Origin: Spirochaetia bacterium
Lineage (GTDB): Bacteria > Spirochaetota > Spirochaetia > SZUA-6 > Fen-1364
Length of the DNA stretch: 64,000 nucleotides
Direction of reading: 5' to 3'
Assembly: GCA_049515135.1 (NCBI GenBank)
Contig: JBEKUJ010000005.1
Span: 227,252-291,251 of the forward strand
Shown here: piece after piece, positions 649-48,902 of the stretch
Layout: each line of letters begins with the position of its first letter
Numbering within the stretch: the stretch's first letter is position 1
Program-made: the position numbers and the translations under genes
Notes under the pieces: generated by a model
Told to the model about the DNA's origin: nothing
Database searches by the model: none
The model's input: the letters and a program-made list of their open reading frames with translations, nothing else

Positions 649-723
649 GGATGAGGATTGTAGCCAGTGCGCGGCAGGTCAACAAGCGTACGGCCTGGTG
701 CCGATATTCAGAGTGACGGGCTT

Positions 724-8396: not shown

Positions 8397-8397
8397 G

Positions 8398-8751
8398 ATG
8401 CAGTGGCTCGTGCACGCCGTCGTCGCGTGGATGGACAAGCTGATGGCGGCGGCCCGCGACAACTACGGGGTCAACCCGGTTGTCTTCCTTGTCATCCTTT
8501 TCGGCGCGAGCCCCGTGTTCTACTTCTCCATCTACCGGATGGTGCGGGCCCTGGCGAAAAAGCACTTGAACGGCGTCACTCTCTGGAGCATGGTATTCCT
8601 GCTCTCCACCGCGGCTCCGTACCTGTACGTCCTGCTTGCCGGAAGGAATCTTCCCTGGTGGGTGTACATCATCATCGGGCTACTGCTGGCTCAGGGGGTC
8701 TGGTCGCTGGTGCGCAGGCTGAAGAAAAGGCCGCAGCCCGACAAGTCATAG
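8398..8751 (+). CDS. Small membrane protein (about 117 aa, 3 TM helices)
   Basis: ATG 8398 lies immediately after the MFS stop. Hydrophobic helices VVFLVILFGASPVFYF and WVYIIIGLLLAQGVW. Confidence 0.45.
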   Translation: MQWLVHAVVAWMDKLMAAARDNYGVNPVVFLVILFGASPVFYFSIYRMVRALAKKHLNGVTLWSMVFLLSTAAPYLYVLLAGRNLPWWVYIIIGLLLAQGVWSLVRRLKKRPQPDKS

Positions 8752-8766
8752 GGGAGGGAGATTCGT

Positions 8767-24518: not shown

Positions 24519-24576
24519 ATCGCAGGCGCGCTTCCACGCTTTCGGGGAAAGTGCTGTGACTTCTTGCTGCAATCTC

Positions 24577-24606
24577 TTGACGGAAATTCCCCGCTCATCT
24601 TAGAGT
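24577..24606 (+). promoter_or_regulatory. Putative sigma70-type promoter of eno (TTGACG-N18-TAGAGT), followed by a structured roughly 90-nt leader
   Basis: Hexamers read directly from the sequence. The leader contains hairpins GGGGATGGAGTCCCC and CCTTCATCCGAAGG before the AGGAGG RBS. Confidence 0.3.
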
Positions 24607-24662
24607 GAGGACAGGGGATGGAGTCCCCCCCAATCCAACCGCCTTCATCCGAAGGCCGATGA

Positions 24663-25988
<1,326 letters not shown>

Positions 25989-26004
25989 GAGTCCGGCCGC
26001 GTTC

Positions 26005-27504: not shown

Positions 27505-29036
27505 GACAGTATTCGCTCCCTCAGGAAATCGTAGGTCAGCCGGTACTTTTCAGCAAGCGATATCGCGTACGACAGCCCGTCCGCGCGCTTGCGGACGACT
27601 TTGTAGGTTCGAACCGCAGGGTTTCCGGGGTCGACCGTGCTGACCATGCTGACAGTTTTGTCGCTCATGGTGGAGAGCTCATCGATGAAGGTCACGCAAA
27701 TGCACACCAGATCCAGCTGGATTATCCTTTCCATCACTTTCTTGCCCAGGAAGATTGCATCTTTCAGCGTGGTTGAATTGAAGATTTCATTCATGATTAT
27801 GACGCTGTTCGACGTGGCCTCGCGGAGGATGCGATGAATTCGAACCAGATCGTCTTCGAGCTTTCCTCTGAGATTCCTGATGTCTTCTTCCTTTTCAAAA
27901 TGGGTGAACAATTTGTCAAAAAGGAGAAGTCGAACTTCCCTGCCCTGGACAGGACAGCCGAGGCTTGCAAGGTAATGCATCTGCCCGAAGGCGCGGGCGA
28001 AGGTCGTTTTACCGCCCTGGTTCGGACCGGACACGATGAAAATGCGCTCCCTGCCGTTCAGGCAAAAATCGTTGCAGACAGGTGAGGAATCCTCCGCGGC
28101 GAGCTTGCGGGCCAGGGCCAAGTCGAATCCCTCAGAGCAGGAGACTTCCTTGCGGATGTCGGAAACGCTGGGATAGCAGAATTGCAGCCCCACCCGTTTC
28201 ACGCCTGCAATAAAGTCCAGATACGAGATGTAGAATTGTACCTCGCGGTCAAAGGCGGCGACTGTTTCATCCAGGTAGCCGGCGTTGCGAGCGCAGTAGT
28301 CGTCGAGGTCCTGAAATATCTCGGGATGCAGTCGGGCAACCAGGTCCAGCACCTGCGCCTCGACGTGATTCATGTCGGATCCGTTTCGGAACTTTGTCAG
28401 GTAATCCTTGACCGCGCCTTGGTTGAACTTCTCGAATGTCCGTTCCACCTCGGCGCTGTAGTCGATTTCAGACTCATATTTCCGGACCCTGACGCGGCCG
28501 GCACTCACAAGCGTGCAGTATTGCACGGAGGGAAGATCCGCCTGCAGCTTCTTTGTCTGCGCGAGAAGTGAGGAAAAGCCTTCGGATGCGGCGTACCCGG
28601 CAAGATACGTGCAAAAGGACACAAGCCCGCGGGATTTCACTTCAAGGACGGATATGTCGCGCGCAAGGGATTGAACCGCGTCACAATAGATCTCCACGGC
28701 ATCCAGGAACCATCTTTCCTTCTGGCGGGCGTAATGGAGCTTGTTTTCCAGGGCAATGTGCTGGCGCATCGTCTGCATCTTCTGCGCGAATGTCTCTATT
28801 GCCTCATTGATGGGCCTGTTTTCGAGATCCCGCATGACTTCCTGGCGATACAAGATCTCATCGACGTCATTCAGTGAGGTGTGGAAGAACGGCTTCAGGT
28901 TGTATTCGTCCTTGCCGACGGTAATTGCGTCTATGATCTGGTCCAGGTTCAAGTCAACGAAGAAATCCGGCGCTTCCGGAGTTTCTTTGGAGAAGCCGGC
29001 ATCCGTTCTTCTGGAAAGCACGCTGCAGAAAATCAT
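27501..29036 (-). CDS. MutS-domain protein, paralog 2
   Basis: IFIVSGPNQGGKTTFARAFGQMHYLASLGCPVQ (Walker A) and MNEIFNSTTLKDA. Same architecture as paralog 1, first in the pair. Confidence 0.7.
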   Translation of the reverse strand: MIFCSVLSRRTDAGFSKETPEAPDFFVDLNLDQIIDAITVGKDEYNLKPFFHTSLNDVDEILYRQEVMRDLENRPINEAIETFAQKMQTMRQHIALENKLHYARQKERWFLDAVEIYCDAVQSLARDISVLEVKSRGLVSFCTYLAGYAASEGFSSLLAQTKKLQADLPSVQYCTLVSAGRVRVRKYESEIDYSAEVERTFEKFNQGAVKDYLTKFRNGSDMNHVEAQVLDLVARLHPEIFQDLDDYCARNAGYLDETVAAFDREVQFYISYLDFIAGVKRVGLQFCYPSVSDIRKEVSCSEGFDLALARKLAAEDSSPVCNDFCLNGRERIFIVSGPNQGGKTTFARAFGQMHYLASLGCPVQGREVRLLLFDKLFTHFEKEEDIRNLRGKLEDDLVRIHRILREATSNSVIIMNEIFNSTTLKDAIFLGKKVMERIIQLDLVCICVTFIDELSTMSDKTVSMVSTVDPGNPAVRTYKVVRKRADGLSYAISLAEKYRLTYDFLRERILS

Positions 29037-29054
29037 CTCTAACCTCCCGGGTCA

Positions 29055-30253
29055 TCACGAGCGGAGCTTTCGCCTGGCGACGTGCCAGAACCATGGCACG
29101 GCAGCCAATTGCAGAACCACTGATACGGCAATCAGGGAAACCAGCGAAACGCCGTAGAGAAATCCGAGCGCTGCGCTTCCCAGGAACCAGAATGTGCCGT
29201 ACGCCGCAGTGAACAACCCATATGCGGACGCGCGTCGATTCGAAGCGACCATCGGCGCCACGGCGGCGGGGATGATCGATTCGTGCACGCCCATGCCGAG
29301 CCCCCAGAGAGCCATGCCAATGAGCGCGCCCCAGAAGCCGCCAAGGAACACCAGCGGTGCAAAAAGGGCTGAAGCGATTGTCAGGACGATCAACACACGG
29401 AACCCGAAACGGTCGAAAAGCCGTCCGAACGCCAGTGAGCCAACGCCGCTGACGCCCATCGCCACCGCGTAGAAAACGGGGATGACATCTGATGAAACCG
29501 TCGACGCCTTTGCGAAGTGATATGCAATGAGCGGAAAATCAGCAAACCCGGCTGCGACAAGGGCTGCGCCGGCCAGATAGATCCAGAAAATGCGCGGCAG
29601 TCCCCGCGCCTGGACATCCGAGGTTTTTGCTTCATTTTTTCGGGGTGAGCGTACAGCAGGCGGGCCGTCATCACGAGGCAGAGGTTGATGGCGGCAGGAA
29701 CAACGAGCGCCGCAAACGCGAGGCGATAATCGCCGCGGAGCGCGAGGACCCCGGCAACCGCCAAAGGCCCGAAAAGAGCGCCGAACTGATCAAGTGCCTC
29801 GTGAAGACCGAACGCCCAGCCATATCCCTTCATCCAGCTCCCGGCGTGCGCCAACATGGCATCACGCGGCGGATTGCGGGTGGCCTTGCCCATCCGCTCG
29901 AGGATGATGAGCACCGCAGCCATCTGCCAGTTTCCCGCGAGGGCAAGGAGCGGCACGGAGGCCATCTGGACGACATACCCCGCTATCGTGATCGGCCAGA
30001 ACTTCTGCGTCCGATCGGCAACACGCCCTGAGACCAGCCGCAGGCCGTATCCGAGGAACTCACCCAGCCCGGCCACCACGCCCACGATGAAAGCGTTGGC
30101 CTGCAAGACCGCCAGGAAGGGCCCAAGGATGCTGCGTGAGCCTTCATAGGTGAAATCCGCGAAAAAGCTCAGGATGCCGATCAGGATGACGAACCTGAGC
30201 GCTGTCTTCCTGCCTTCTCTGACTTGCGGCTCGCTCATTTCACTCATGGGCAT
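29055..30253 (-). pseudogene. MFS transporter split by a frameshift at a T6/A6 homopolymer (29634-29639)
   Basis: Listed ORFs 29390..30253 (TM1-6) and 29055..29465 (TM10-12) are in different frames. Reading the second frame upstream gives ...KTSDVQARGLPRIFWIYLAGAALVAAGFADFPLIAYHFAK..., which joins the first half precisely at the GAAAAAATG run. Confidence 0.6.
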
Positions 30254-30689
30254 GCATCTCGCCGCTCATTCCACGATCCACGTATTCCGTGAGTTGGCCA
30301 AGGATCAATTGCAACCCCGCCAGGGCCTGCTTCGTCTCTTGAGCCGCGTCTGCATCGAGGGCGCCATAGTTTCCCAGTCGTTTCGGCTCCACCTCAGCAA
30401 GGGCTATCCAGACGAAATCGAGAGCTACGCGAAATGTCCATAGGCCCCCCTTCGACGGGGCGTCTGGGTGGACCGGAACAGCTTCGAGGAAGCGGCGCGC
30501 GACGCGGCGGAAGGATGCAAGGTAGTCGGCAATAACGCGCCGCTGGGTCGGGCTTACATCGGGCAGGCAGGAAGGAAAAAGCAAGTCTCCGTCCGCTTGT
30601 CCGAGGCCGGCCACCGCTTGCGCCAGAAGCTTGTCAACGTGTTGAAATGCGGCGAGAAGATAACGTTTGTGGTTTTCATTAAATGGCAT
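30240..30689 (-). CDS. Hypothetical protein (149 aa)
   Basis: ATG preceded by AAGGAGG. It overlaps the MFS start, suggesting an operon. I recognise no family. Confidence 0.45.
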   Translation of the reverse strand: MPFNENHKRYLLAAFQHVDKLLAQAVAGLGQADGDLLFPSCLPDVSPTQRRVIADYLASFRRVARRFLEAVPVHPDAPSKGGLWTFRVALDFVWIALAEVEPKRLGNYGALDADAAQETKQALAGLQLILGQLTEYVDRGMSGEMHAHE

Positions 30690-30840
30690 TGCCTCCTTAC
30701 CCCCTCATGCCCCGGCCGCGCAGGCCTCTCACACGGCCAGCTCATCATGTGCTCAGGCATCATCAGCCAGCAGGGCGTTTAACGGAGGAATGCCATCTCC
30801 ACCGCTCAATGTATAAGCAATCAAGACATTGAACAAGAGG

Positions 30841-31476
30841 TTAAAGGCGCGGCTGAGACTTCACGTGGCAAGTCTCGTTCATCGACGCAAGCGAAAAATC
30901 GTTCCCGTCGATCTCGATTTCGCTGACCGCGCAATTGTCTTGCTTGAGATGCCATAGGCGATCGTTTCCCAGGCCCAGGACAACAAGAAGCATTGTCCTG
31001 TTCACGTCGGTGTGCGCCACGGCCACGACCGTCTCACCGGCATGTCGGGATGAGATCTCGGCAAGCGCCGTCACGCATCTCCGGCGGACCTCGTCAAGCG
31101 ATTCGCCGCCCGGCATCTTCACCGTCTGAGGGGTTGTGTACCACGCAGAAAGAAGCTCAGGCCATCGCGCTTTGACTTCACGAGGGGACAGGCCTTCCCA
31201 TTCGCCAAAACTCATGTCGATCAGGGCAGGCAATATCTCAACCGCTAGAGAGAAAGGGCGCGCAATTGCCTTTGCCGTGTCCAAAGCGCGGGAAAGAGGG
31301 CTCGAGTAGATGGCTGTCGGCTTCCATTCCGCTTCGATGCGCCGGGCGGTGAGCTCCGCTTGGCGCACGCCAACGTCGTTCAGCGGAACGTCCGTGTGCC
31401 CCCGGAATCGCTCGTTCACATTCCAATCGGTCTGTCCGTGTCGCACGAGAATGATCCGTGTCCGGTTTTCGCTCAT
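30841..31476 (-). CDS. Histidine phosphatase family protein (phosphoglycerate-mutase-like)
   Basis: ILVRHGQTDWN is the RHG catalytic motif, and there is a later His. Confidence 0.8.
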   Translation of the reverse strand: MSENRTRIILVRHGQTDWNVNERFRGHTDVPLNDVGVRQAELTARRIEAEWKPTAIYSSPLSRALDTAKAIARPFSLAVEILPALIDMSFGEWEGLSPREVKARWPELLSAWYTTPQTVKMPGGESLDEVRRRCVTALAEISSRHAGETVVAVAHTDVNRTMLLVVLGLGNDRLWHLKQDNCAVSEIEIDGNDFSLASMNETCHVKSQPRL

Positions 31477-31829
31477 CGAGGCGTGTCCGTTTTTTCTTGG
31501 ATTCTTGCGAGTATGTGCCTGCTGTCCATATCATTCGGTTTTCGTTCGATGACTTCGACGATGCATCTTCTGGCCTCATCATACTTCCCCATCTTGTACA
31601 GACACCACGCGAGATGTTGGAGGAACATCGGCTCGTAAGGATTCAGATACATGGCCCGTCGGAACTGCGATTCGGCGACATCGAACATTTCTCTCTGCAA
31701 GGCGTACATACCTAGCGAATCGCGGTCATAGCCAAGGAAACGGCTTGGCCGCATCTGCTCTTCTCTGCGTTCGTCCCGGTTTGGACTGACGGATACTTTT
31801 CGCCGCATGGTCACTGACGCAGATGGCAC
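31473..31829 (-). CDS. Tetratricopeptide-repeat protein (small)
   Basis: FRRAMYLNPYEPMFLQHLAWCLYKMGKYDEARRCIVEVIERKPND is TPR-like. A 4-nt overlap with the downstream gene. Confidence 0.5.
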   Translation of the reverse strand: MPSASVTMRRKVSVSPNRDERREEQMRPSRFLGYDRDSLGMYALQREMFDVAESQFRRAMYLNPYEPMFLQHLAWCLYKMGKYDEARRCIVEVIERKPNDMDSRHILARIQEKTDTPR

Positions 31830-31991
31830 GGTATGCGCGGGGACAGCTGACTGTCAACACTTCGCTCTTGACCGCCGCGGAGCTTTTCGATACCTTCGCC
31901 GCAGACAAGTTGGCGATGGGGTTCGCCATAAAAACGCCCTCATGGGGCTGATAACTCCTACCTGACACATTCTGCCAGCTGGAGGAGCTCC

Positions 31992-33197
31992 ATGGAACCG
32001 CTTTTCTTTATTGCCGGTATCTGGCTTTGCATCTCTGTCATTGCAGCAATCATTGCGTACCACCTTGATATCTCGATAGCCCTGGTAGAGATCTGCCTCG
32101 GGGTGGCAGCTGCTGCGATTGCCGACCATTTCTTCGGCAAAGGATCGCTCGGAAGCAGTCAGCCATGGCTGCAATTCCTCGCCTCTGCAGGCGCGGTGTT
32201 GTTAACCTTCCTTGCCGGCGCTGAGCTTGATCCCGCCGTGATGCGCGCGAAGATCAGAGAGGTGAGCATCATCGGGATTGTCGGCTTCCTCGCTCCTTTC
32301 GCCGGGGGGACTGCGGTAGCGAGGTTCTTCCTGGGCTGGTCGATTTCTTCCAGTTTGCTGGGAGGCATTGCTCTTTCCACAACTTCCATGGCAGTGGTAT
32401 ATGCCGTGATGCTGGAGACAGGGCTGAACAAAACGGACTTCGGGAAAGGGATCCTCGGGGCCTGTTTCGTGAACGATCTTGGGACCGTCATCGCTCTGGG
32501 TCTGATGTTCTCTCCGTTCACCTACAAGACGCTCGCGTTCATCGTCGTGAGCGCCCTTGTTATCGGATTCCTGCCCACGGTGACAAAGTTCCTCACTCGC
32601 GTCTACGGCAACAGGACGGCTGCCATCAGGACCAAGTGGATCATCGCCGTGCTCCTGGGGCTCGGGACCCTGGCGTACTGGTCGGGAAGCGAGGCCGTCC
32701 TCCCCGCGTATGTCGTGGGCATCGTGCTGGCTGAGTTCGTCACAGCGGAGCACCTGTGGCTTCGCCGGCTTCGCACGTTGACAACTGGGCTCCTCACGCC
32801 TTTTTATTTCATCCGCGCCGGTTCGTTCATTTCGGTCCCTGCCCTGATTGCCGCTCCGGCGATGGTGCTCATGCTCTTCCTGGCGAAAGTGATCTCCAAG
32901 ATCTTCGGATTATTCCCCCTGATCGGCAGGTTCCGCGGGCAGACCCAGGAACGGTGGTACTACACTCTCATGATGTCGACCGGGCTCACCTTCGGGACAA
33001 TTTCCTCCCTGTACGGGCTGAGCCATGGCATCATCGACCAGGCCCAGTATTCCGCGCTTGTGGCCACGGTAATTGCCAGCGCTGTGATCCCGACTCTGAT
33101 TGCCCAGCGCGCGTTCCTTCCGAAACACCTGCTTGCCCCTGCGGAGTTGAAGAAGCATGTTCTGAGGGTCCCCGAGGGAAGTCCCGCGGACGAATAA
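31992..33197 (+). CDS. Cation:proton antiporter (CPA1/CPA2, Na+/H+ or K+/H+ exchanger family)
   Basis: 401 aa polytopic protein. FLAGAELD and later segments are Na_H_Exchanger-like. RBS GGAGGAG. Confidence 0.75.
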   Translation: MEPLFFIAGIWLCISVIAAIIAYHLDISIALVEICLGVAAAAIADHFFGKGSLGSSQPWLQFLASAGAVLLTFLAGAELDPAVMRAKIREVSIIGIVGFLAPFAGGTAVARFFLGWSISSSLLGGIALSTTSMAVVYAVMLETGLNKTDFGKGILGACFVNDLGTVIALGLMFSPFTYKTLAFIVVSALVIGFLPTVTKFLTRVYGNRTAAIRTKWIIAVLLGLGTLAYWSGSEAVLPAYVVGIVLAEFVTAEHLWLRRLRTLTTGLLTPFYFIRAGSFISVPALIAAPAMVLMLFLAKVISKIFGLFPLIGRFRGQTQERWYYTLMMSTGLTFGTISSLYGLSHGIIDQAQYSALVATVIASAVIPTLIAQRAFLPKHLLAPAELKKHVLRVPEGSPADE

Positions 33198-33202
33198 GAT
33201 AG

Positions 33203-34474
33203 ATGCTGCGGCTGTTCTTTGGCGTTGGCATATTCCTCGCCACTCTCGTCGTCATCGTGGTCAGGCCGTACAGGGTCACCGAAGCCATGGCGTCCGCAGG
33301 CGGAGCTCTGCTCATGATTGCCGGCGGGTTCGTTGGCATTCGCGAGGCGGCTTCCGTGCTGATCGGGCAGTGGAATACTCTTGGATTCTTCCTGGGGTTG
33401 ATGGCCATTTCCGCCGTTGCCGAGGAAGCTGGGGTCTTTGAGACGCTGGCATTCCAGGCTGCGCGGTGGGGGAGGGGGAACTCGACCCGGCTGTACATCG
33501 CTGTTTTTTCCGTCGGGACGGTCATCAGCGCCTTTCTCTCCAACGATGCAACAGCCCTGATCCTTACCCCCGTTGTCTATGCGCTTGTGACACGGCTTCG
33601 CCTTCCCGTTCTCCCGTTCATGTTTGCATGCACCTTCATTGCCGACACGGCCTCCTTCATCCTTCCGGTGAGCAACCCCATCAACATCCTGATCCTGCAC
33701 TCCTTTGGCGGCGGGCTGGTGACCTTTCTTCGCTACCTGGCCCTTCCAAGCCTTGCAGCCGTGGTGCTCAACTGCATCATCTTCCTCTGGCTCTTCCGGA
33801 GCGACCTTGCACAGGACTATTCGCTGTCGGCCCTGCCCGCACCTCGTATTGTTGACACGCGATTCCTTGCAGTCACCGCTTGCATCCTTGCGCTCATCGT
33901 CGTCTCCTACCTCGCGGCTTCCCTGACAGGAGTGCCGCTGTCCTATGTTGCGCTGGGCGGGGGGATCCTGATGGCCGCGGCCGCTCTCCTCCTTCGGCGT
34001 CTCCGGCCGGCAGTGCTGGTCCGAAAGATATCCTGGTCGCTTTTCATCTTTGTCGGAGGCATGTTCATTGTTGTGAAGGCTGTGGAGGACCTGGGGCTCA
34101 CGGCGGCATTCGGGCGCATGCTCCTGGGCCTTGCGGCCGGCCGGCCCCTTGCGGCAGTGCTCCTTGTGGCGGGCGGCACGGCACTCGGCGCGAACCTCAT
34201 CAACAACGTGCCGATGGCCCTGGTAATGACTTCCGCGCTGCATGGCCTCCCGCCTTCATTTACGGGGCACGAGTCGCTTGCGTATGCGGCCATTTTCGGC
34301 GCTGACCTTGGCCCGAACCTCACGACCGTCGGCTCGCTGGCCACCATGCTCTGGCTCCTGATCCTCCGGCGCCGCGGGCTGGAGGTATCCACTCGTCAGT
34401 ACTTCAGGCTTGGCATTACATTCGTCCCGGCGCTCATTGTACTCGGCTCCCTGCTGATATGGGCCCGGTTGTAA
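33203..34474 (+). CDS. ArsB/NhaD-superfamily permease (arsenite efflux / anion permease family)
   Basis: 423 aa polytopic protein. SNDATALILTPV and a repeated two-half topology are characteristic of ArsB/NhaD/CitMHS. Confidence 0.75.
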   Translation: MLRLFFGVGIFLATLVVIVVRPYRVTEAMASAGGALLMIAGGFVGIREAASVLIGQWNTLGFFLGLMAISAVAEEAGVFETLAFQAARWGRGNSTRLYIAVFSVGTVISAFLSNDATALILTPVVYALVTRLRLPVLPFMFACTFIADTASFILPVSNPINILILHSFGGGLVTFLRYLALPSLAAVVLNCIIFLWLFRSDLAQDYSLSALPAPRIVDTRFLAVTACILALIVVSYLAASLTGVPLSYVALGGGILMAAAALLLRRLRPAVLVRKISWSLFIFVGGMFIVVKAVEDLGLTAAFGRMLLGLAAGRPLAAVLLVAGGTALGANLINNVPMALVMTSALHGLPPSFTGHESLAYAAIFGADLGPNLTTVGSLATMLWLLILRRRGLEVSTRQYFRLGITFVPALIVLGSLLIWARL

Positions 34475-37355: not shown

Positions 37356-38534
37356 GTGAGCACCGAATGCCTCGTCATGGCAAAACCGGCGGGTCCGGGC
37401 TGCAACATGCGCTGCGCCTACTGCTATTACCTTGGGAAAGCCGCGCTTTTTCCCCAGGGTCCTTGGCGAATGCCTGAAGCCCTGCTGGAGCGATATGTCG
37501 TCCAGCGTCTGGAGTCCTCACCCGGTCCCGTGACTCATTTCGAGTGGCACGGCGGAGAGCCCACCCTTCTGGGACTGGATTATTTCCGTACGATCGTGCG
37601 CGTACAGAGAGCCCACCGTCCCGCAGGCCGCAGGGTGTCAAACGGAATCCAGACCAACGGCCTGCTTCTGGATGAAGCCTGGGCCGGGTTCCTGAGTGAG
37701 GAGGGCTTTTCCGTCGGTCTGAGCCTCGACGGACCGGCGGACCTCCACGATGAGTTTCGAAAGGCCGCCGGCGGCGGCGCCACGCATGCCCAGGCGACTG
37801 CTGCTTTCCGCCTTCTCAGGCGGCGTGGAGTGTTCTGCAACGCCTTGTGCGTGCTCCATTCGGCGAATGCTGCTGAGCCTGACAGGGTGTACGACTTTTT
37901 CCGCGATCTGGGGGTGAAATACCTCCAGTTCCTTCCCCTGGTGATCCCGGCTGGGGGAGGCGGAGTACGCGCTCCCACCGCCTCCCCCGAGGCCCTTGGG
38001 GCTTTCCTTTGCCGGGTGTTCGACCGGTGGCTGCAGCACGACGTGGGACGGATCGTGATCCAGACCTTTGACGAAGCGCTGCGCCCGATCTACGGGATCC
38101 CGCATGCGCTGTGCATCCATAGGGAAACCTGTGGCGATGTCGCCGTCCTGGAGCATGACGGTGGATTCTACGCGTGCGATCACTTCGTGGACGCCGACCA
38201 CCTCATGGGGAACCTGAAGGACCTGACCCTTTCGGAAATGATTGCTGATCCTCGCATGAAGCGCTTCGGCCAGGACAAACGGGATACGCTTCCCCGAACC
38301 TGCAGAGAGTGCGACGTGCTTTCCTCATGCAACGGCGGCTGTCCGAAGGACCGCATCGCCGCGTCGCCCGACGGCGAAGCAGGCCTGAGCTACCTGTGCC
38401 CTGCGTACCGGAGGTTCTTCCGCCACAGCCAACCAGGCCTTGCCCGCCTGGCCCAGCACATGAAGCTGGGCAGGTCTCTCAGGTCCTTCGCAGCGACTCC
38501 AGGTTCGAGCGGGCAGCCGGCACCGACGCCATGA
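37356..38534 (+). CDS. Anaerobic sulfatase-maturating enzyme-like radical SAM / SPASM-domain protein
   Basis: CNMRCAYCY is a CxxxCxxC radical SAM cluster motif. HFEWHGGEPTL, plus C-terminal Cys clusters (CDHF...CRECDVLSSCNGGCPKD), match the anSME/SPASM architecture. Confidence 0.8.
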   Translation: MSTECLVMAKPAGPGCNMRCAYCYYLGKAALFPQGPWRMPEALLERYVVQRLESSPGPVTHFEWHGGEPTLLGLDYFRTIVRVQRAHRPAGRRVSNGIQTNGLLLDEAWAGFLSEEGFSVGLSLDGPADLHDEFRKAAGGGATHAQATAAFRLLRRRGVFCNALCVLHSANAAEPDRVYDFFRDLGVKYLQFLPLVIPAGGGGVRAPTASPEALGAFLCRVFDRWLQHDVGRIVIQTFDEALRPIYGIPHALCIHRETCGDVAVLEHDGGFYACDHFVDADHLMGNLKDLTLSEMIADPRMKRFGQDKRDTLPRTCRECDVLSSCNGGCPKDRIAASPDGEAGLSYLCPAYRRFFRHSQPGLARLAQHMKLGRSLRSFAATPGSSGQPAPTP

Positions 38535-41479: not shown

Positions 41480-43249
41480 ATGAAGAGAACCGACACCTGC
41501 GGCGCGCTTCGCGCCAAGGACGCCGGCAGACGCGTCACACTGAACGGCTGGGTGCACAGGCACCGCGACCACGGCGGCATCAGATTCTTCGACCTTCGGG
41601 ACCGCTATGGCCTCACGCAGGTAGTCGTGGACTCGGACGCCTCGGCGGACCTTGCGGAGACAGGCAGGCAGCTGAAGTTCGAATACTGCGTCGCCGTGGA
41701 GGGGACGGTCCGCCCCCGGCCGCCCGCAATGGCAAACTCCGCCATGCCCACCGGAGAGATCGAGGTGAAGGCGGAAAGGATCGACATCCTCAGCCGGTGC
41801 GAAGTCCTTCCGTTCATGGTTGATGAGAAGGCGGACGCAAAGGAGGACACCCGGTTCAAGTACCGCTACATTGACCTGCGCACGGCCCGGATGCAGCGGA
41901 ACATCGCGCTGCGCCATGCTGCCGCGTTCGCGGCGCGGGAGTTCCTGGTATCCCAGGGCTTCTATGAGATCGACACGCCGATGTTCATCAAGTCCACCCC
42001 AGAAGGTGCGCGGGACTACCTGGTGCCTTCCCGGCTGAACCCGGGGCGCTTCTACGCGCTTCCCCAGTCGCCGCAGCTCTACAAGCAACTGCTGATGGTC
42101 TCTGGGTTCGACAGGTATTTCCAGATCGCGCGGTGTTTCCGCGACGAGGATGCGCGCGGGGACAGGCAGCCTGAGTTTACGCAGATCGACATCGAGATGA
42201 GCTTCGTGTCGCGTGAGGACGTGTTCCTTCTGGTGGAAGGCCTCATGGCGCATATCTTCAAGAAGTCGATAAACACGGATATCGCCGTCCCTTTCCAGAG
42301 GCTGGCCTACGACGATGCAATGAGCCGCTACGGCTCCGATAAGCCGGACCTGAGATTCGGGCTGGAATTGAAGGATTTCGGAGATTTTGCCGCAAAAGGC
42401 AGCTTCGAGGTCTTCAGGAAGGTGATGGAATCCGGCGGAGCCGTGAAGGCGCTGGTTGCCCCGGGCTGCGGGGATTACTCCAGAAAGCAGATCGCGGAGC
42501 TGGAGTCGGTTGCCAAGGTTTATGGCGCGGCCGGGCTTGCTTCCATGAAGGTGTCCGAGCAGGGTCTGGAAGGCGGGGTCTCAAAGTTTTATACGGACCA
42601 GGCGGCGGCCATCCGGCAGGCCCTGGGGGCAAAGCCGGGGGACCTCATCCTCATGGTCGGCGCAGATCAGCGCAAGGCGTGCATTTCCCTGGGCGCTGTA
42701 CGCACGCAGCTCGGCAAGGACCTCAAGCTTGCCGCCGAGGGGGATTTCCGCTTCTGCTGGATCATAGACTTTCCGTTGTTCGAGTGGAACGAGGAGGAGA
42801 AGAAATGGGACCCTGCGCACCATATGTTCACCATGCCGCAGGAGAGTTTCGTCGCGGACTTCGAGAGCAGGCCTGCCGAGGTCAAGGGAGATCTGTACGA
42901 CCTGGTCTGCAACGGCGTTGAGCTCGCCTCAGGCTCCATCAGGATCCACGACCCCGAGCTTCAGAAGAGGATCTTCCGGTTCCTCGGGCTTTCCGAGGAG
43001 CAGGCGCAGAAGAGATTCGGCTTCCTCCTGGAAGCCTTCCGTTACGGGCCTCCTCCCCATGGGGGGATCGCTCCGGGCTTCGACAGGCTTGTGGCCATGA
43101 TGGCGGGGGAAGGGACAATTCGGGAGGTCATTGCCTTTCCCAAGAACACCCTCGGCCAATGCCCCATGGACGATTCCCCTTCGGAAGTGGATCCGAAGCA
43201 GCTGCAGGAGCTGCATCTCGCCATCACCGGCCAGGAGCCGGCGAAATGA
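41480..43249 (+). CDS. aspS: Aspartate--tRNA ligase
   Basis: MKRTDTCGALRAKDAGRRVTLNGWVHRHRDHGGIRFFDLRDRYG..., with class II motifs FRDEDARGDRQPEFTQIDIEMSF and GGIAPGFDRLVAMM. Confidence 0.9.
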   Translation: MKRTDTCGALRAKDAGRRVTLNGWVHRHRDHGGIRFFDLRDRYGLTQVVVDSDASADLAETGRQLKFEYCVAVEGTVRPRPPAMANSAMPTGEIEVKAERIDILSRCEVLPFMVDEKADAKEDTRFKYRYIDLRTARMQRNIALRHAAAFAAREFLVSQGFYEIDTPMFIKSTPEGARDYLVPSRLNPGRFYALPQSPQLYKQLLMVSGFDRYFQIARCFRDEDARGDRQPEFTQIDIEMSFVSREDVFLLVEGLMAHIFKKSINTDIAVPFQRLAYDDAMSRYGSDKPDLRFGLELKDFGDFAAKGSFEVFRKVMESGGAVKALVAPGCGDYSRKQIAELESVAKVYGAAGLASMKVSEQGLEGGVSKFYTDQAAAIRQALGAKPGDLILMVGADQRKACISLGAVRTQLGKDLKLAAEGDFRFCWIIDFPLFEWNEEEKKWDPAHHMFTMPQESFVADFESRPAEVKGDLYDLVCNGVELASGSIRIHDPELQKRIFRFLGLSEEQAQKRFGFLLEAFRYGPPPHGGIAPGFDRLVAMMAGEGTIREVIAFPKNTLGQCPMDDSPSEVDPKQLQELHLAITGQEPAK

Positions 43250-44250
43250 ACAGGCGTCAGCGCGTGGCAGAGGCAATCGCCCACCGGCAGCCGGACAAGG
43301 TGCCCTACCACATCAGTTTCACCGTGCCTGCCAGAGAAGCCATGACGCGCTGGTACAGGGACCCGCAGTTCGAAGCCTTGCTGGGCAACTGCCTGCTCCT
43401 CCTGGAGACCGAGCCGAAAAACTCCTGGAAAAGGGTGCGGGGGGAGGTCTGGGAAGACCAGTTCGGCGTCCAGTGGGACAGGACCATCGATGCCGACATC
43501 GGCACTGTCTGCAACTCTCCGCTCACCCGGGACAACCTCGCGACATATCCTTTCCCTGATCCGCTGGACCCGTCGCGCTTCGAGGACTGGGCTGCGCTTC
43601 TGGCCGGCCGCCCTGACTCCTTTGTCGTTGCGAACATCGGGTTCAGCCTTTTCGAGCGGGCGTGGACCCTGGCCGGCATGGAGACCGTGCTCATGGCAAT
43701 GGTGGATGACAGGCGCTTCCTGGACCATCTCCTGGACAGGATCCTGGACTTCAACCTGAAGCTCATCGAAAAAGCCTGCTCGTTTCCGATCGACGCCATG
43801 CGCTTCGGGGACGACTGGGGCCAGCAGCGCGGCCTCATCATGGGGCCTGTCCTGTGGCGCGAGCTGATCGGACCACGGGTCCGGCAGATGTACAGCCTGG
43901 TGAAATCGAAAGGGAAGAAGGTGTTCATTCACTCCTGCGGAAAAGTCGACGAGCTTTTTCCAGATCTGATCGAAAGCGGCCTTGACGTGTTCAACCCGTT
44001 CCAACCCGAGGTCATGGACGTGTACGAGATGAAGCGCCGCTACGGAGACAGGCTTTCATTCTTCGGCGGGATCAGCACGCAGAAGACGCTTCCTTATGGG
44101 ACCATCCCGCAGGTGAAGGAGGAGGTCAGGCGCCTCCTGGATGCCATCGGCAGGAACGGCGGGTACATTGCATCTCCAGCGCACGACATTCCCAGGGACG
44201 CGAAGCCTGAGAACATTGCCGCCATGATCGAAGTGCTGCAGGCGCAGTAG
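43246..44250 (+). CDS. Uroporphyrinogen decarboxylase (URO-D) family protein, MtaA/CmuA-like methyltransferase paralog
   Basis: 334 aa. Its start ATG overlaps the aspS TGA as AATGA. Family-typical segments HSCGKVDELFPDLIESGLDVFNPFQPEV and SFFGGIST. Confidence 0.8.
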   Translation: MNRRQRVAEAIAHRQPDKVPYHISFTVPAREAMTRWYRDPQFEALLGNCLLLLETEPKNSWKRVRGEVWEDQFGVQWDRTIDADIGTVCNSPLTRDNLATYPFPDPLDPSRFEDWAALLAGRPDSFVVANIGFSLFERAWTLAGMETVLMAMVDDRRFLDHLLDRILDFNLKLIEKACSFPIDAMRFGDDWGQQRGLIMGPVLWRELIGPRVRQMYSLVKSKGKKVFIHSCGKVDELFPDLIESGLDVFNPFQPEVMDVYEMKRRYGDRLSFFGGISTQKTLPYGTIPQVKEEVRRLLDAIGRNGGYIASPAHDIPRDAKPENIAAMIEVLQAQ

Positions 44251-44252
44251 GA

Positions 44253-44999
44253 TCAGGAGGCGGGGCCATCGCGCCGCTGCTCCAGCACGCCCATCACGAT
44301 CCGTGCGACGATGTCCACCAGCCGGGGGTCCACGTCTTCCAGCCCCGGCTTCGGCTTTCCCCAGCCCTGCTGTTCCCGCACTTTTTGCAGGGTGGTGATC
44401 TCGCTCTGGCTCAAGGGCTTGGGCTCTCCCAGGATCTTCGTGACCAGCCGCACCCGGGCGTACATCTCAAGCACTTCCATGCGGTAGTAGGCCTGCATCA
44501 CGTCGGCGCCGACGGTGAGCGCGCCATGGTTCGAGAGGAGAACAGCGTCGCAGCCGGGGATCTCTTTTTCGACGGCATTGGGGATCTCCTCCGTGGTGGG
44601 GGTCCCGTACTCGGCGAACCCCACTCTGCCCAGGCCGAACACGATTTCGGGCAGGATCACGTCGGCGTCAAGCCGGATATGACACGCTGCAAACCCGGTG
44701 GCGGCCGGGGGATGAGCGTGCACGATGGCCGTCACATCGGGCCGGGTCCTGTACACGGCCAGGTGCATCTTCGTTTCCGAGCTCGGAAGCATGCTTCCCG
44801 AGATGACCTTGCCCTGCATGTCTATCATCAATATCTGTTCCACCGTGACGTCGCCCTTGTTCACGCTGGTGGGAGTGATGAGAATCCGGTCTGCGGACAG
44901 CCGCGCGCTGATGTTGCCGTCGTTCGCTGCCACGAAAAACCGGTCGCGCAGTCTCCTGCCGGCCTCCACGATCTGCCGCCTGGCTTCCTCTTCCTGCAT
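44253..44999 (-). CDS. Class II aldolase/adducin-family protein (MtnB dehydratase or Ald2 methylthioribulose-1-P aldolase-like)
   Basis: 248 aa. ITPTSVNKGD, HLAVYRTRPDVTAIVHAHPPAATGFA and LSNHGALTVG include the metal-binding His residues of the class II aldolase fold. Confidence 0.8.
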   Translation of the reverse strand: MQEEEARRQIVEAGRRLRDRFFVAANDGNISARLSADRILITPTSVNKGDVTVEQILMIDMQGKVISGSMLPSSETKMHLAVYRTRPDVTAIVHAHPPAATGFAACHIRLDADVILPEIVFGLGRVGFAEYGTPTTEEIPNAVEKEIPGCDAVLLSNHGALTVGADVMQAYYRMEVLEMYARVRLVTKILGEPKPLSQSEITTLQKVREQQGWGKPKPGLEDVDPRLVDIVARIVMGVLEQRRDGPAS

Positions 45000-45002
45000 G
45001 AA

Positions 45003-45285
45003 GGCGATAGTAGCCCTTCAGGACGACCGCGTCCAACGCCGGCGGGCTGTCCTAGGCCATAGGCCGAAATAGGCACGCTGATAAAAAAACCCGCGGACTG
45101 ACCTCCCAGTTTGCATCAGTCAACGGGTAAGGATTGTTATTTTTGTTACAGTTACGTGCATAGTTGACTAGATATTATCAATTGTCAAGATACTAATTAA
45201 ACATTATTGGCAATCTTACCGAAAATAATGTTGTTAGATAACAATACAAATGTTACTATAAACGCCCTTTGGGGTTGGCCAGCGA
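45003..45285. promoter_or_regulatory. AT-rich divergent control region (24% GC over 45161-45260) between the class II aldolase gene and the DeoR gene. It holds palindromes TTGTTAgaTAACAA and ATTGgCAAT and direct TTGTTA repeats.
   Basis: GC counted by hand. The palindrome at 45231-45244 was verified base by base. TTGACT and TATCA/TACTAAT-like hexamers are present. Confidence 0.5.
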
Positions 45286-46068
45286 ATGGCGACAAGAAAC
45301 AGGCAGGGAAGGATCGCTCGAATTCTCGAGTCTCTTCAGACTGGCAGCGCGGCGACAATACAGGAGCTGTCACAAAGACTTTCCGTCTCCGAGATGACCA
45401 TCAGGCGCGATCTAACCCTCCTTGCTGCCCAGAACAAGGTCAGGCTCGTCAGGGCAGGGGCCATCCTCCGGGCTGGGTTCCTTGATGCTCCCCTGGGCGC
45501 ATACTCCCTGGCATCGGACCGGGAACAAGGCGCACAGGAAAGGTCCAGGATCGGGACCAAGGCTGCATCGCTCGTGGAACCAGGCGACGTTGTGATCATT
45601 GACTCGGGTTCCACCACCGAGTGGCTTGCCCGCAGTCTGCCCTACGACATGCCCCTGACGGTGATCTGCTTTGCGCTCAACATCGTCCTGGAAGTGGGAA
45701 GCCGGGAAAAGTGCACGGTGGTGTTCGCGGGCGGGACCCTGCGCAGTGATACGCTTGTCTGCGAAAGCGCCGAGGGCATTCAGCTCATCCGGCGCTACCG
45801 TGCCAACAAGGCCTTTCTATCCGCCGGAGGCGTCAGCGATGCGCTTGGCGTCACATGCGTCGATACAGCGGAGGCGGAGCTGAAGAAGGCTGCAATGCAG
45901 TCAGCCCAATCCAGGATCCTCCTGGTTGATTCGAGCAAGCTCGGACGGGTCACGCCCTCATGGTTTGCGGCGCTTGAGGACTTCGACGCCATTATCACGG
46001 ATTCGGGAATCTCCCTCGAATACGTGGAGATCGCTCGCGCGCGCGGAATTGCGCTTCACGTGACATGA
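45286..46068 (+). CDS. DeoR/GlpR-family transcriptional regulator
   Basis: N-terminal HTH (RIARILESLQTGSAATIQELSQRLSVSEMTIRRDL). C-terminal sugar-phosphate sensor domain with IIDSGSTT. Confidence 0.8.
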   Translation: MATRNRQGRIARILESLQTGSAATIQELSQRLSVSEMTIRRDLTLLAAQNKVRLVRAGAILRAGFLDAPLGAYSLASDREQGAQERSRIGTKAASLVEPGDVVIIDSGSTTEWLARSLPYDMPLTVICFALNIVLEVGSREKCTVVFAGGTLRSDTLVCESAEGIQLIRRYRANKAFLSAGGVSDALGVTCVDTAEAELKKAAMQSAQSRILLVDSSKLGRVTPSWFAALEDFDAIITDSGISLEYVEIARARGIALHVT

Positions 46069-46115
46069 GCAGACTCCTGACGATGGAACCGGGCCGAGAG
46101 TTGACGGCACTGTAA

Positions 46116-47210
46116 ATGAGCGTGATGAGCTTTTCCCGCGCGGTCCAGCCCGATGTATCCGAGCTGGTCGACATTCTGTTCCGACGCAGGCTTCCCGCGC
46201 GAGTCCATCACATCGAGCTTTTCCTCGACCCGGAGATCAAGGAAGCGGTTGTCCGGCGTTTCGGGCTGTGCGCAGATCTCGACAGGGCGGACCCGCTTTT
46301 CGAGACAAAACGGGACTTTGCCCTGCACTCCTTCCTGGGCTACGACGTGTTCCGTGTGGGTGTGGCCAGAAAGACTGTTTTCCAGACCGCAACAATTTCC
46401 GCGGCGGACACCACCAACCAGCCCGGCCAGAAACGGTCCGCGCGCGACTGGCAGGAAGAGCACGCGGGTCCCATCCAGGGATGGAAGGACTTCGAGAGCT
46501 ACCGCTGGCCCCGGGTGTCGGATATCAACTTCTCTCCCCTGGAGTGGCTGGAGCGCAACCTGCCGCCCTCCATGGGGTGTTTCGAGCTGACCGCTCATAT
46601 TTTCGAGATCCTCTCATTTCTCCTGGGCTATGAGACCCTCTGCTACGCCGTGGTCGATCAACCTGACCTCGTTGACGCCATACTGGAAAAGGCGGGCAGC
46701 TTCTACGTGGATTTCACAAGGACGCTGGTGGATTTTTCCCGCGTGGCGGTTGTCTGGGGCTCGGATGACCTGGGGTTCAGGTCCGGCACCATGATGTCGC
46801 CCGGCTTCCTCCGACAGAAGATCCTTCCCTGGCACAAGCGCTGCGCAGAGATTGCTCACGCAAAGGGAAAGCCGTACCTTCTTCACTCCTGCGGCAACCT
46901 GGATGAGATCATGGAGGACCTCATCACGGATGTCGGAATCGATGGGAAGCATTCGTTCGAGGATGCGATACTCCCGGTCACCGAGGCCAAGCGCCTCTAC
47001 GGCCAGCGCATTGCGCTCCTCGGCGGCATCGACATGGACTTCCTATGCAGGTCGGATGAGGCTTCCATCCGCCAGCGCGTGCGGGAAACGCTTTCGATCT
47101 GCGCGAGGGGAGGCGGGTATTGCCTCGGCACGGGCAACACGGTTGCCAACTTCGTGCCGCTGGACAACTACCTCTGCATGATTGATGAGGGGCGGCGATT
47201 CGCCGTGTGA
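46116..47210 (+). CDS. Uroporphyrinogen decarboxylase (URO-D) family protein, MtaA/CmuA-like methyltransferase paralog
   Basis: 364 aa. HSCGNLDEIMEDLITDVGIDGKHSFEDAI and LLGGIDMDFL match the family. It is immediately downstream of the DeoR gene. Confidence 0.8.
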   Translation: MSVMSFSRAVQPDVSELVDILFRRRLPARVHHIELFLDPEIKEAVVRRFGLCADLDRADPLFETKRDFALHSFLGYDVFRVGVARKTVFQTATISAADTTNQPGQKRSARDWQEEHAGPIQGWKDFESYRWPRVSDINFSPLEWLERNLPPSMGCFELTAHIFEILSFLLGYETLCYAVVDQPDLVDAILEKAGSFYVDFTRTLVDFSRVAVVWGSDDLGFRSGTMMSPGFLRQKILPWHKRCAEIAHAKGKPYLLHSCGNLDEIMEDLITDVGIDGKHSFEDAILPVTEAKRLYGQRIALLGGIDMDFLCRSDEASIRQRVRETLSICARGGGYCLGTGNTVANFVPLDNYLCMIDEGRRFAV

Positions 47211-47220
47211 GTGACCCCGG

Positions 47221-47661
47221 TCACTCGTCCAGCAGGCAGGGCAGGTAGAAACGCCGCATTGCCTTCAGAAGCTCGTCGGGTCCTTCCACCGTCCCCCGGG
47301 CGCTCGACAGCCTGTACAGGAGGGTATAGTTGCCCATGTAGCGGAAGGAGAAAGTGAACCTCTCGGACTCCGCGCCGTTTCGCTTCATGATGAAATCGAT
47401 GACGGCCTCGTTTCCGCTCATGCTTCGTGTTTCCAGCTGGAAGCTCACGATCGTTCCATCTCGCATGACGACCTGCTGGAACTTCGCGTCGCGGAACAGG
47501 GCCGCGAAGGTCCGGTTGCTGAAGTCTGAAACGCCGTCCTTCACGCACAGCCGGGAGCTCCAGACCGAGTCCGAGATGGCCGGGGCGGTCATTGCTGCGC
47601 CTGCTGGGAGGATGAGCAGCAGCAGGAGCAGGCCGGTAAACAGTTTTTTGTGCCTTTTCAT
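47221..47661 (-). CDS. Secreted hypothetical protein (146 aa)
   Basis: Signal peptide MKRHKKLFTGLLLLLLILPAGAAMTAPA. I recognise no family. Confidence 0.45.
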   Translation of the reverse strand: MKRHKKLFTGLLLLLLILPAGAAMTAPAISDSVWSSRLCVKDGVSDFSNRTFAALFRDAKFQQVVMRDGTIVSFQLETRSMSGNEAVIDFIMKRNGAESERFTFSFRYMGNYTLLYRLSSARGTVEGPDELLKAMRRFYLPCLLDE

Positions 47662-47750
47662 ACCGTCGGTACCTTGTATCGGGCGGCAAAATCATAATCT
47701 GAAACCGGAAATCGGCCCTTCCGTGACCACTCCCCGAGGCTGGTACCCAT

Positions 47751-47781
47751 CTTGACCTGGCTGGAAGGCCAAACTCATAAT
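47751..47781 (+). promoter_or_regulatory. Putative promoter of mtnA (TTGACC-N17-TCATAAT). The -10 element is one copy of a repeated AAA(T/C)TCATAATC motif.
   Basis: Hexamers read directly. The second repeat copy lies at 47688-47700. Confidence 0.3.
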
Positions 47782-47786
47782 CGCGC

Positions 47787-48902
47787 GTGCTTATGATAGA
47801 TCCTGTCCGGCTGGATGATGACGCCGGCGTCCTTGTCATTCTGGACCAGACCCGTCTTCCCGGCGAGACCGTTTTCCTGCGCTTGGGCAGCCCGGAGGAG
47901 ATCTGGGAGGCGATTTATGAGCTTCGCGTCCGGGGCGCTCCCGCCATCGGCATAGCGGCGGCGTACGGGGCCTATCTCGGAATCCGCGGCTCCACGGCAA
48001 AAACCTACGCGGAGCTGACTGAAGAGTTTGCCCGGGTGAAGAAATACCTTGCCTCGGCCCGTCCAACGGCTGTGAACCTCTTCTGGGCCCTGGACCGCAT
48101 GGAAGCGCGCCTGGCCAGGGCGCGGGGAGTAGCTCCTGCAGAGGCCAAGGCCGCATTAAAGGCTGAAGCGGAAGCCATCCGCGCGGAGGATGAGGAGGTG
48201 TGCCGCAGCATTGGAGAGCACTCCCTGGGACTCTTGCGGAAAGGCTGGGGTCTTCTCACGCATTGCAACGCCGGCGCACTGGCCACTGCGCGCTGGGGCA
48301 CTGCCACGGCGGCGATCTACCTTGGCAACCAGCGGGGGTACGCCTTCAAGGTCTATGCGGATGAGACCCGGCCGCTGCTGCAGGGATCCCGCCTTACGGC
48401 ATGGGAGCTGGTGCAGGCGGGAATCGACGTCACAGTCATTTGCGACAACATGGCTTCCATTGTCATGAAGCAGGGATGGGTTCAGGCCGTCCTGGTAGGC
48501 TGTGACCGGGTTGCGGCCAACGGCGATGCCGCCAACAAGATCGGCACGTCCGGCGTCGCCATCCTGGCGCGTCACTATGGGATTCCCTTCTATGTCCATG
48601 CGCCGCTTTCCTCTATCGACCTGAAATGCCCCACCGGCGCAGACATCCCCATCGAGTTGAGGAAAGAGGAGGAAGTTACCCGGAAGTGGTACTCCAGGCC
48701 CATGGCGCCCGAGGGGGTGAAGGTTTACAACCCCGCCTTCGACGTCACCGACCACGAGCTGATCACCGCAATAGTGACGGAGGGGGGGATCGCATGCCCG
48801 CCGTTCAGCGATTCGCTTGCGAAGCTTGCGTCGGCTCCCGTGGCGCTTCATCCCGGCCGGCAGACTTCCCCGCATCAAGGGCAGGCCGGTTGCGGCTCAT
48901 GA
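47787..48902 (+). CDS. mtnA: S-methyl-5-thioribose-1-phosphate isomerase (MtnA; eIF-2B alpha/beta/delta family)
   Basis: RGAPAIGIAAAYG, THCNAGALAT and GCDRVAANGDAANKIGT are hallmark motifs of the family. Start is GTG 47787 or ATG 47793. Confidence 0.8.
   Translation: MLMIDPVRLDDDAGVLVILDQTRLPGETVFLRLGSPEEIWEAIYELRVRGAPAIGIAAAYGAYLGIRGSTAKTYAELTEEFARVKKYLASARPTAVNLFWALDRMEARLARARGVAPAEAKAALKAEAEAIRAEDEEVCRSIGEHSLGLLRKGWGLLTHCNAGALATARWGTATAAIYLGNQRGYAFKVYADETRPLLQGSRLTAWELVQAGIDVTVICDNMASIVMKQGWVQAVLVGCDRVAANGDAANKIGTSGVAILARHYGIPFYVHAPLSSIDLKCPTGADIPIELRKEEEVTRKWYSRPMAPEGVKVYNPAFDVTDHELITAIVTEGGIACPPFSDSLAKLASAPVALHPGRQTSPHQGQAGCGS

Follow-up and report, generated by a model that had tools for sequence, protein, structure and literature searches.

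The dihydroxyacetone phosphate (DHAP) shunt and the disposal of 5-deoxyribose run through MtnP, or MtnN together with MtnK, then through the isomerase MtnA or DrdI and finally through the aldolase Ald2 or DrdA (Beaudoin et al. 2018, PMC6079011; North laboratory, E. coli, PMC10986504, PMC12632272). In E. coli the operon of the DHAP shunt is repressed by MtnR (YjhU), a protein assigned to the DeoR family in the paper that describes it (PMC12632272). Bacterial gene clusters with MtaA-like methyltransferases have already been described as well, sometimes including homologs of MarHDK that act on methylthioethanol (Kountz and Balskus, PMC10418091). In this study we analyzed a 64-kb stretch of DNA (the window) from a Spirochaetia metagenome-assembled genome of wetland or peat samples. 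Genes for MtnA, a class II aldolase and a DeoR-family repressor are interleaved there with genes for two proteins of the uroporphyrinogen decarboxylase (URO-D) superfamily, here called URO-D1 and URO-D2. The original prediction had read these genes as one DeoR-regulated methylthio-sugar module in which the URO-D proteins process the methylthio product. We consider it rather probable (about 65%) that the interval holds two functionally separate gene sets, which are neighbors only in one shallow Spirochaetia lineage. The interval comprises the following genes:

43246-44250, plus strand: URO-D1, 334 amino acids, PF01208 with 79 bits; the ATG overlaps the stop codon of aspS by 4 nt (ATGA)
44253-44999, minus strand: class II aldolase, PF00596 with 165 bits
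45286-46068, plus strand: DeoR-family repressor with HTH_DeoR and DeoRC domains, divergent from the aldolase gene
46116-47210, plus strand: URO-D2, 364 amino acids, PF01208 with 64 bits; 47 nt downstream of deoR
47221-47661, minus strand: secreted-looking protein of 146 amino acids with an N-terminal hydrophobic signal-like segment
47787-48902, plus strand: MtnA, TIGR00512 with 413 bits against a cut-off of 279

In the pathway that we favor, MtnA would convert methylthioribose-1-phosphate or 5-deoxyribose-1-phosphate to the ketose-1-phosphate, which the class II aldolase would cleave to dihydroxyacetone phosphate and 2-(methylthio)acetaldehyde or acetaldehyde. The enzyme forming the ribose-1-phosphate (MtnP, or MtnN plus MtnK) would be encoded elsewhere. 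The divergent DeoR protein would repress the aldolase gene through TGTTA/TAACA operators, a terminator hairpin in the leader might act as a second control, and mtnA would be read from a promoter of its own that has no DeoR operator. URO-D1 and URO-D2 would form a separate MtaA-like set, the former translated together with aspS and the latter following deoR. The MtaA-like genes appear to lie beside the shunt genes by a lineage-specific accident. The identities of the genes, their conservation and the RNA helix are direct results of the analysis, whereas the substrates, the regulation and the division into two sets are inferred.

Gene content and conservation of the locus

All five genes that the original prediction had named were found in their places and with the content given, and the gene of the 146-amino-acid protein is a sixth that was absent from that account. 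This protein matches no Pfam or NCBIfam model; its gene is kept between URO-D2 and mtnA in three related loci (L005, L006 and L091). As had also been noted, the 64-kb window encodes no MtnK, no MtnP-type phosphorylase and no B12-binding protein.

For comparison we used 80 genome loci centered on URO-D1 and 68 centered on the aldolase, with about 170 loci fetched overall (L numbers in the text). Relatives with ∼71-90% identical proteins (L005, L006, L007, L015, L087, L090 and L091) share this gene order, which in the loci examined does not extend beyond them. The aldolase gene and its DeoR gene are found in 4 of the 80 URO-D1-centered loci and mtnA in 2 of 80, all of them from close Spirochaetota relatives. 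Seen from the other side, URO-D1 is present in 4 of the 68 aldolase-centered loci. Hence the co-localization that had been expected to be conserved among relatives is confined to one shallow lineage. What is conserved more widely is the divergent pair of aldolase and deoR, which forms the core of the locus in at least 20 loci with DeoR proteins 53-77% identical.

The place of URO-D1 next to this core varies. Three loci of the sister clade (L097, L100 and L102) have aspS directly beside the aldolase gene with the slot between them empty, and in L170 the slot is occupied by a GH9 glycosidase gene. Insertions behind aspS thus vary from one locus to another.

MtnA and the class II aldolase

MtnA passes the equivalog cut-off of TIGR00512 and also that of PRK05720 (454 against 271). 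Its best match in the PDB is MtnA of B. subtilis with 339 bits, compared with 109 bits for ribose-1,5-bisphosphate isomerase. These values argue for a true MtnA-type enzyme, as had been proposed, and not for a ribose-1,5-bisphosphate isomerase. The protein is thus predicted to be an isomerase of the S-methyl-5-thioribose-1-phosphate type that probably also acts on 5-deoxyribose-1-phosphate.

The aldolase matches PF00596 over its full length. The three histidines for metal binding and the catalytic glutamate (E75, H94, H96 and H158) are invariant in the alignment, and the protein bears a conserved C-terminal extension of ∼35 amino acids. It scores below every NCBIfam cut-off, including those for FucA, MtnB, AraD, OtnC and RhaD. 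The FucA models give 76-125 bits against cut-offs of 264-400 (TIGR01086, 76 against 400; NF005302, 125 against 264). With the MtnB model TIGR03328 the score is 87 bits against 137, and only residues 10-101, the N-terminal half, can be aligned; we therefore rejected an assignment as MtnB dehydratase. Methionine salvage by the MtnB route has MtnA in common with the locus, but MtnC, MtnD, MtnW and MtnX are all missing from the window. Among PDB entries FucA of S. pneumoniae is the best match (97 bits), with DrdA of B. thuringiensis (6BTD) in third place (92 bits). The aldolase is 26% identical to Ald2 of E. coli (ATCC 25922) and 30% identical to FucA, and FucA and E. coli Ald2 share 58% identity. 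Placing the aldolase by its similarity to characterized enzymes was given up as uninformative, since Ald2 resembles FucA far more than it resembles the window protein and the FucA and DrdA scores are about equal.

More can be learned from the gene neighborhoods of its relatives. Two low-GC contigs (L149 and L151, 27-30% GC) carry a cluster of mtnK, mtnA, an aldolase gene (60% identical product) and deoR, in which the kinase reaches 519 with TIGR01767 against a cut-off of 275. In Brevibacillus laterosporus (L176) a purine-nucleoside phosphorylase gene and the nucleoside transporter gene nupC lie upstream of a divergent deoR, mtnA (59%) and the aldolase gene (45%). The kinase and phosphorylase clusters are versions of the published DHAP shunt or of 5-deoxyribose disposal. 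A homolog of 43% identity sits in a genuine fucose operon (L174: fucI, kinase, aldolase and fucU, with DeoR). Neither FucA nor RhaD forms a firm cluster with the window aldolase, in agreement with what had been proposed, and its closer relatives are found in the clusters of kinase or phosphorylase with mtnA, aldolase and DeoR. The aldolase is thus most likely a 5-methylthioribulose-1-phosphate or 5-deoxyribulose-1-phosphate aldolase of the Ald2/DrdA type. This substrate assignment rests on gene context, because the homolog of the fucose operon is equally distant (43-45%) and Ald2 is only 26% identical; with a homolog in a fucose operon it is probable, not proven.

Compared with the known DHAP shunt, the locus is alike in that relatives of its mtnA and aldolase genes stand together in clusters with a kinase or phosphorylase. 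It differs in that the window contains neither of these, in the position of the isomerase and aldolase genes, which are 3 kb apart on opposite strands and form no single operon, and in the aldolase itself with its low identity to Ald2 and its C-terminal extension. FucA shares with the aldolase the Pfam family, a similar range of scores and the top PDB match; unlike in the fucose operon, fucose genes are missing here and the closer relatives are linked to mtnA. Genes for rhamnose use, fucI, fucK and fucU are missing from the window, and the Spirochaetia loci do not have them either.

In six loci of a clade with 66-67% identical aldolases (L136, L138, L140, L142, L143 and L144) a protein of 326 amino acids is encoded directly ahead of the aldolase gene on the same strand. 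It has no Pfam match; NagB-like motifs can be seen by eye (FNMDEW), and it is possibly an alternative isomerase partner for sugar phosphates. In the sister clade a gene for an APH-family kinase of 332 amino acids occurs near deoR (L170 at 7956-8954, L097, L102, L118 and L133); it overlaps the end of deoR in L170 and lies within 50 nt of deoR in L097 and L102. As a candidate for the missing MtnK this kinase (L170, L097 and L102) was rejected, being unlike MtnK and absent from the window.

Predicted control of the aldolase gene

The predicted regulatory features of the interval are:

45133-45262, no strand: AT-rich control region of the divergent genes in which TGTTA/TAACA half-sites recur, candidate DeoR operators
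45232-45243, no strand: palindrome TGTTAGATAACA, single occurrence in the 64-kb window, expected number 0.01
45183-45188, minus strand: candidate -35 box TTGACA of the aldolase promoter
45075-45138, minus strand: leader hairpin with U-run, terminator-like, downstream of the candidate aldolase promoter and ahead of the ATG of the aldolase gene
47752-47781, plus strand: promoter-like site of mtnA, TTGACC-18-CATAAT

The putative -35 box, read as TGTCAA on the plus strand, is found in all aligned intergenic regions between aldolase and deoR. In seven related loci the TGTTA/TAACA half-sites occur only upstream of deoR and of the aldolase gene, from which we infer that DeoR controls the aldolase through these sites. 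In the same loci there are none upstream of mtnA, URO-D2, aspS/URO-D1 or the gene of the 146-amino-acid protein. One DeoR regulon for the entire interval thus lacks support and was rejected. The proposed DeoR regulation can be kept for the aldolase, and possibly for URO-D2 as the neighbor of deoR, but not for the interval as a whole. A different sequence, GGTAYC...GTATCGGGC, is conserved at 47662-47700 between mtnA and the divergent gene of the 146-amino-acid protein and stands at the same position in L005, L006 and L091; it is unlike the DeoR half-sites.

As with MtnR of E. coli, the gene of a sugar-phosphate-type repressor adjoins shunt genes and the likely operator overlaps the promoter region. 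The two arrangements differ in that DeoR of the window is divergent from the aldolase gene only, and in that the leader hairpin comes in addition. YjhU is annotated in RefSeq as a sugar-binding transcriptional regulator, and homology between MtnR and the HTH_DeoR/DeoRC protein of the window was rejected because no similarity can be detected.

The leader of the aldolase transcript contains a hairpin with the stem GCCCGYGRWC/GWYCRCGGGC and a loop that starts with the invariant ACUGGGAGG; longer variants of the element have extra hairpins inserted. Besides the window it was found in L005 (13898-13983), L090 (3107-3167), L097 (5074-5167) and ∼25 other loci. With a covariance model one match per locus was obtained in ∼30 loci. 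Each match lies at the start of the transcript on the aldolase side, adjacent to the divergent deoR, and this position is held even where tetR and matE genes have been inserted ahead of the aldolase gene. The stem is 95.7% paired with compensatory changes in 6 of 10 pairs, a value that none of 500 shuffles equaled. Because of this covariation it is the hairpin that is supported and not the leader as a whole, whose folding energy is not unusual (z = -1.26). Searches of Rfam 15 with short and long variants of the leader gave matches at chance level only and no family. The hairpin probably helps to control the aldolase gene, and it might be possible that it is a new attenuator or riboswitch tied to the disposal of an S-adenosylmethionine by-product.

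The URO-D proteins

URO-D1 and URO-D2 are distant paralogs (27-30% identical) that score far below the cut-offs of the methyltransferase models. TIGR01463 (MtaA/CmuA) gives 61.5 and 52.3 bits, respectively, against 235, and NF040654 gives 47 and 37 bits against 400. With the hemE model TIGR01464 URO-D1 reaches 20.4 bits against a cut-off of 303 and URO-D2 has no match, so that neither is a HemE protein, in line with the original prediction. The AlphaFold2 model of URO-D1 (predicted local distance difference test score 94.6) has its best fold match in MtaA of Methanosarcina (4ay7, E 9.5e-14, template modeling score 0.73), with HemE next.

The reference for the zinc site was a set of MtaA residues that we take to be the ligands in the published 4ay7 structure. 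In URO-D1 the residues H229, C231 and H313 are invariant; H229 and C231 align to two of the MtaA ligand positions and His313 stands at the third, a cysteine in MtaA. URO-D2 has kept an HSCG motif and, in the alignment to MtaA, has Asn at the third ligand position. The sites thus read His-Cys-His in URO-D1 and His-Cys-Asn in URO-D2, where the proposed chemistry led one to look for ligands as in MtaA. In the URO-D superfamily S-methyltransferases have a His-Cys-Cys zinc site, whereas in O-methyltransferases one or both cysteines are replaced (PMC10418091). As neither site is His-Cys-Cys, both proteins are unlike the thiol or thioether enzymes, and their predicted zinc sites point away from thiol or thioether chemistry.

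Partners for a corrinoid-dependent methyl transfer were looked for as well. A search with the B12 domain of MetH and the motif DxHxxG...SxL...GG had hits in only two of the ∼170 loci, L038 and L147; the window gave no hit, and the Pfam lists of neighboring genes contain no B12-binding domain. The window lacks a corrinoid protein, a Ram/RACE activase and DUF1638, as do nearly all related loci. Genetic evidence connects DUF1638 with cobalamin-dependent methyl transfer; it lies directly beside URO-D1 in 18 loci, all from Planctomycetota; in these loci a protein with an Ada-type zinc domain also recurs next to URO-D1. Compared with MtaA, MtbA, MtsA and the bacterial Mlp clusters, the locus is alike in the fold of URO-D1 and in the kept HxC part of the zinc motif, and it is unlike them in the third ligand, in the low model scores and in having no corrinoid protein or activase nearby. 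A literature search combining the uroporphyrinogen decarboxylase family with corrinoid and methyltransferase found no papers.

The surroundings of URO-D1 elsewhere are diverse. The family has more than 6,400 detected homologs and is 60-70% identical across at least 10 phyla, including Spirochaetota, Planctomycetota, Verrucomicrobiota, Lentisphaerota, Chloroflexota and Caldisericota. In other Spirochaetia URO-D1 ends a sugar operon of overlapping genes (ABC transporter, FGGY kinase, AP_endonuc_2, DeoR and a PF01116 aldolase). It abuts a sulfatase gene in seven loci from six phyla, and further neighbors are genes for AP_endonuc_2, zinc-type alcohol dehydrogenase and GFO_IDH_MocA oxidoreductase proteins. 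In many genomes it is found singly, surrounded by housekeeping genes. Anaerolineae and other Spirochaetia have homologs of URO-D2 (43-53% identical) next to URO-D1 but no MtnA with them. In the window URO-D1 is convergent with the aldolase gene and probably co-translated with aspS, because its start codon overlaps the aspS stop codon, an arrangement that is maintained in relatives. URO-D1 is probably outside the DHAP shunt. The placement of URO-D2 at 47 nt behind deoR is seen in the genome of the window only.

A third URO-D-like open reading frame (1-678, minus strand) is cut by the left end of the window and therefore partial; it scores 74 bits with a custom URO-D profile, and one NCBIfam scan gave no match. 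Hence URO-D paralogs are abundant in this genome. In another locus (L088) five URO-D-like paralogs lie within 21 kb.

Weighing the explanations

Several observations count against the reading of the interval as a dispersed DHAP shunt with a separate URO-D set beside it. Besides the low identity to Ald2 and the equal distance to the aldolase of the fucose operon, a first-step enzyme is missing, with neither an MtnK-like kinase (tblastn) nor a gene of the purine-nucleoside phosphorylase family in the 64-kb window. Proximity of mtnA to the aldolase gene is limited to the closest relatives and to L149, L151 and L176. URO-D2 and deoR probably share one transcript in the window. In a profile search URO-D-like open reading frames were found within 3 kb of the aldolase gene in 11 of the 68 aldolase-centered loci. 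Three subfamilies are represented, namely the URO-D1 type (L090, L091, L093 and L094), a different one in L108 and a type of 392 amino acids (L107, L117, L120, L121, L131 and L135). Per 10 kb there are 0.54 URO-D-like genes near the aldolase gene and 0.06 at a greater distance, compared with 0.24 in the regions flanking URO-D1 in Spirochaetota loci. This recurrence exceeds a simple chance model, yet it amounts to about three independent events, so that its support for a coupling is weak; the URO-D genes are never within the aldolase operon.

It might be possible that the recurrence in separate Spirochaetota sub-lineages reflects a real coupling, in which an MtaA-like enzyme with a corrinoid partner encoded elsewhere removes or transfers the methyl group of a shunt product, for instance 2-(methylthio)ethanol or methanethiol. 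This would be a so far undescribed variant of 5'-methylthioadenosine recycling, but we give it very little credence. The variant pathway as originally proposed, with corrinoid-dependent URO-D paralogs that demethylate or transmethylate 2-(methylthio)acetaldehyde, 2-(methylthio)ethanol or methanethiol, is likewise very unlikely. The MtaA-like fold of URO-D1 and the HxC motif kept in both proteins would fit it, as would DUF1638 beside URO-D1 in Planctomycetota, the three URO-D subfamilies near the aldolase and the published link of MtaA-like clusters to MarHDK homologs (PMC10418091). However, corrinoid protein, activase and DUF1638 are missing where they would be needed, and the zinc sites are not those of S-methyltransferases. 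Co-localization is missing in ∼95% of the URO-D1 loci and in most aldolase loci, the URO-D genes stand outside the aldolase operon with the aspS-adjacent slot being variable, and with at least three URO-D-like genes in the 64-kb window such paralogs are abundant anyway. A processing of the methylthio product by the URO-D proteins is thus unsupported. Of the methylthio-sugar module the set of MtnA, aldolase and DeoR holds up, yet as a known pathway and not as a new coupling to URO-D methyltransferases.

Two further explanations assign the genes to sugar metabolism. The aldolase and DeoR might serve a route for a deoxy-sugar (fuculose-like) or another sugar-phosphate, with MtnA, 3 kb off, being independent. 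For this speak FucA of S. pneumoniae as the best PDB match, the homolog and its DeoR in the fucose operon, the Joint Genome Institute family name (L-fuculose-phosphate aldolase) and the clade in which the aldolase gene follows the gene of the 326-amino-acid protein and not mtnA. Moreover, mtnA has no upstream DeoR half-sites, and no mtnA gene was found in L007, L087, L097, L102 and L170 within the up to 10 kb examined on each side. Against this stand the missing fucose and rhamnose genes, the closest informative relatives (60% and 45%) in clusters of mtnK or phosphorylase with mtnA and aldolase, and FucA models that all remain far under their cut-offs; we regard this explanation as unlikely. 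It is also improbable that URO-D1, URO-D2 and DeoR make up, together with the aldolase, a unit acting on a sugar that is methylated or modified in another way, with the URO-D proteins as O-demethylase-type enzymes and the assignment of the aldolase to 5'-methylthioadenosine disposal being secondary. The place of URO-D1 as last gene of a sugar operon in other Spirochaetia, its link to sulfatases across phyla, its AP_endonuc_2, alcohol dehydrogenase and oxidoreductase neighbors, and a zinc site with one cysteine replaced as in O-methyltransferases (PMC10418091) are consistent with such a unit. In the window, however, no sugar transporter, kinase or corrinoid protein is adjacent, URO-D1 is convergent and not co-transcribed with the aldolase gene, and in other genomes it is often solitary.

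Implications and other features of the window

A link between 5'-methylthioadenosine disposal and corrinoid methyl transfer would give anaerobes a new way to recycle sulfur and methyl groups, but such a link is not supported by the evidence. Support exists for another case of the DHAP shunt, loosely organized, in uncultured Spirochaetia of wetlands; this is useful for annotation and was to be expected. Two findings seem more interesting than the original claim. One is the family of 334-amino-acid MtaA-like proteins with a His-Cys-His site, which is linked to sulfatases, sugar operons and DUF1638. The other is the terminator-embedded leader RNA motif without an Rfam entry, possibly a new attenuator or riboswitch that responds to S-adenosylmethionine by-products.

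Elsewhere in the window a radical SAM/SPASM protein is encoded at 37473-38534 (plus strand), which scores 345.9 bits with the model for anaerobic sulfatase maturases against a cut-off of 349.45; no sulfatase was noticed among the annotated genes of the window. The region of ∼24000-34000 has a lower GC content (0.53-0.59 compared with ∼0.62 elsewhere) and may be acquired DNA. At 26005-29036 (minus strand) two overlapping tandem genes beside enolase encode proteins of 499 and 511 amino acids with a MutS_V domain only.

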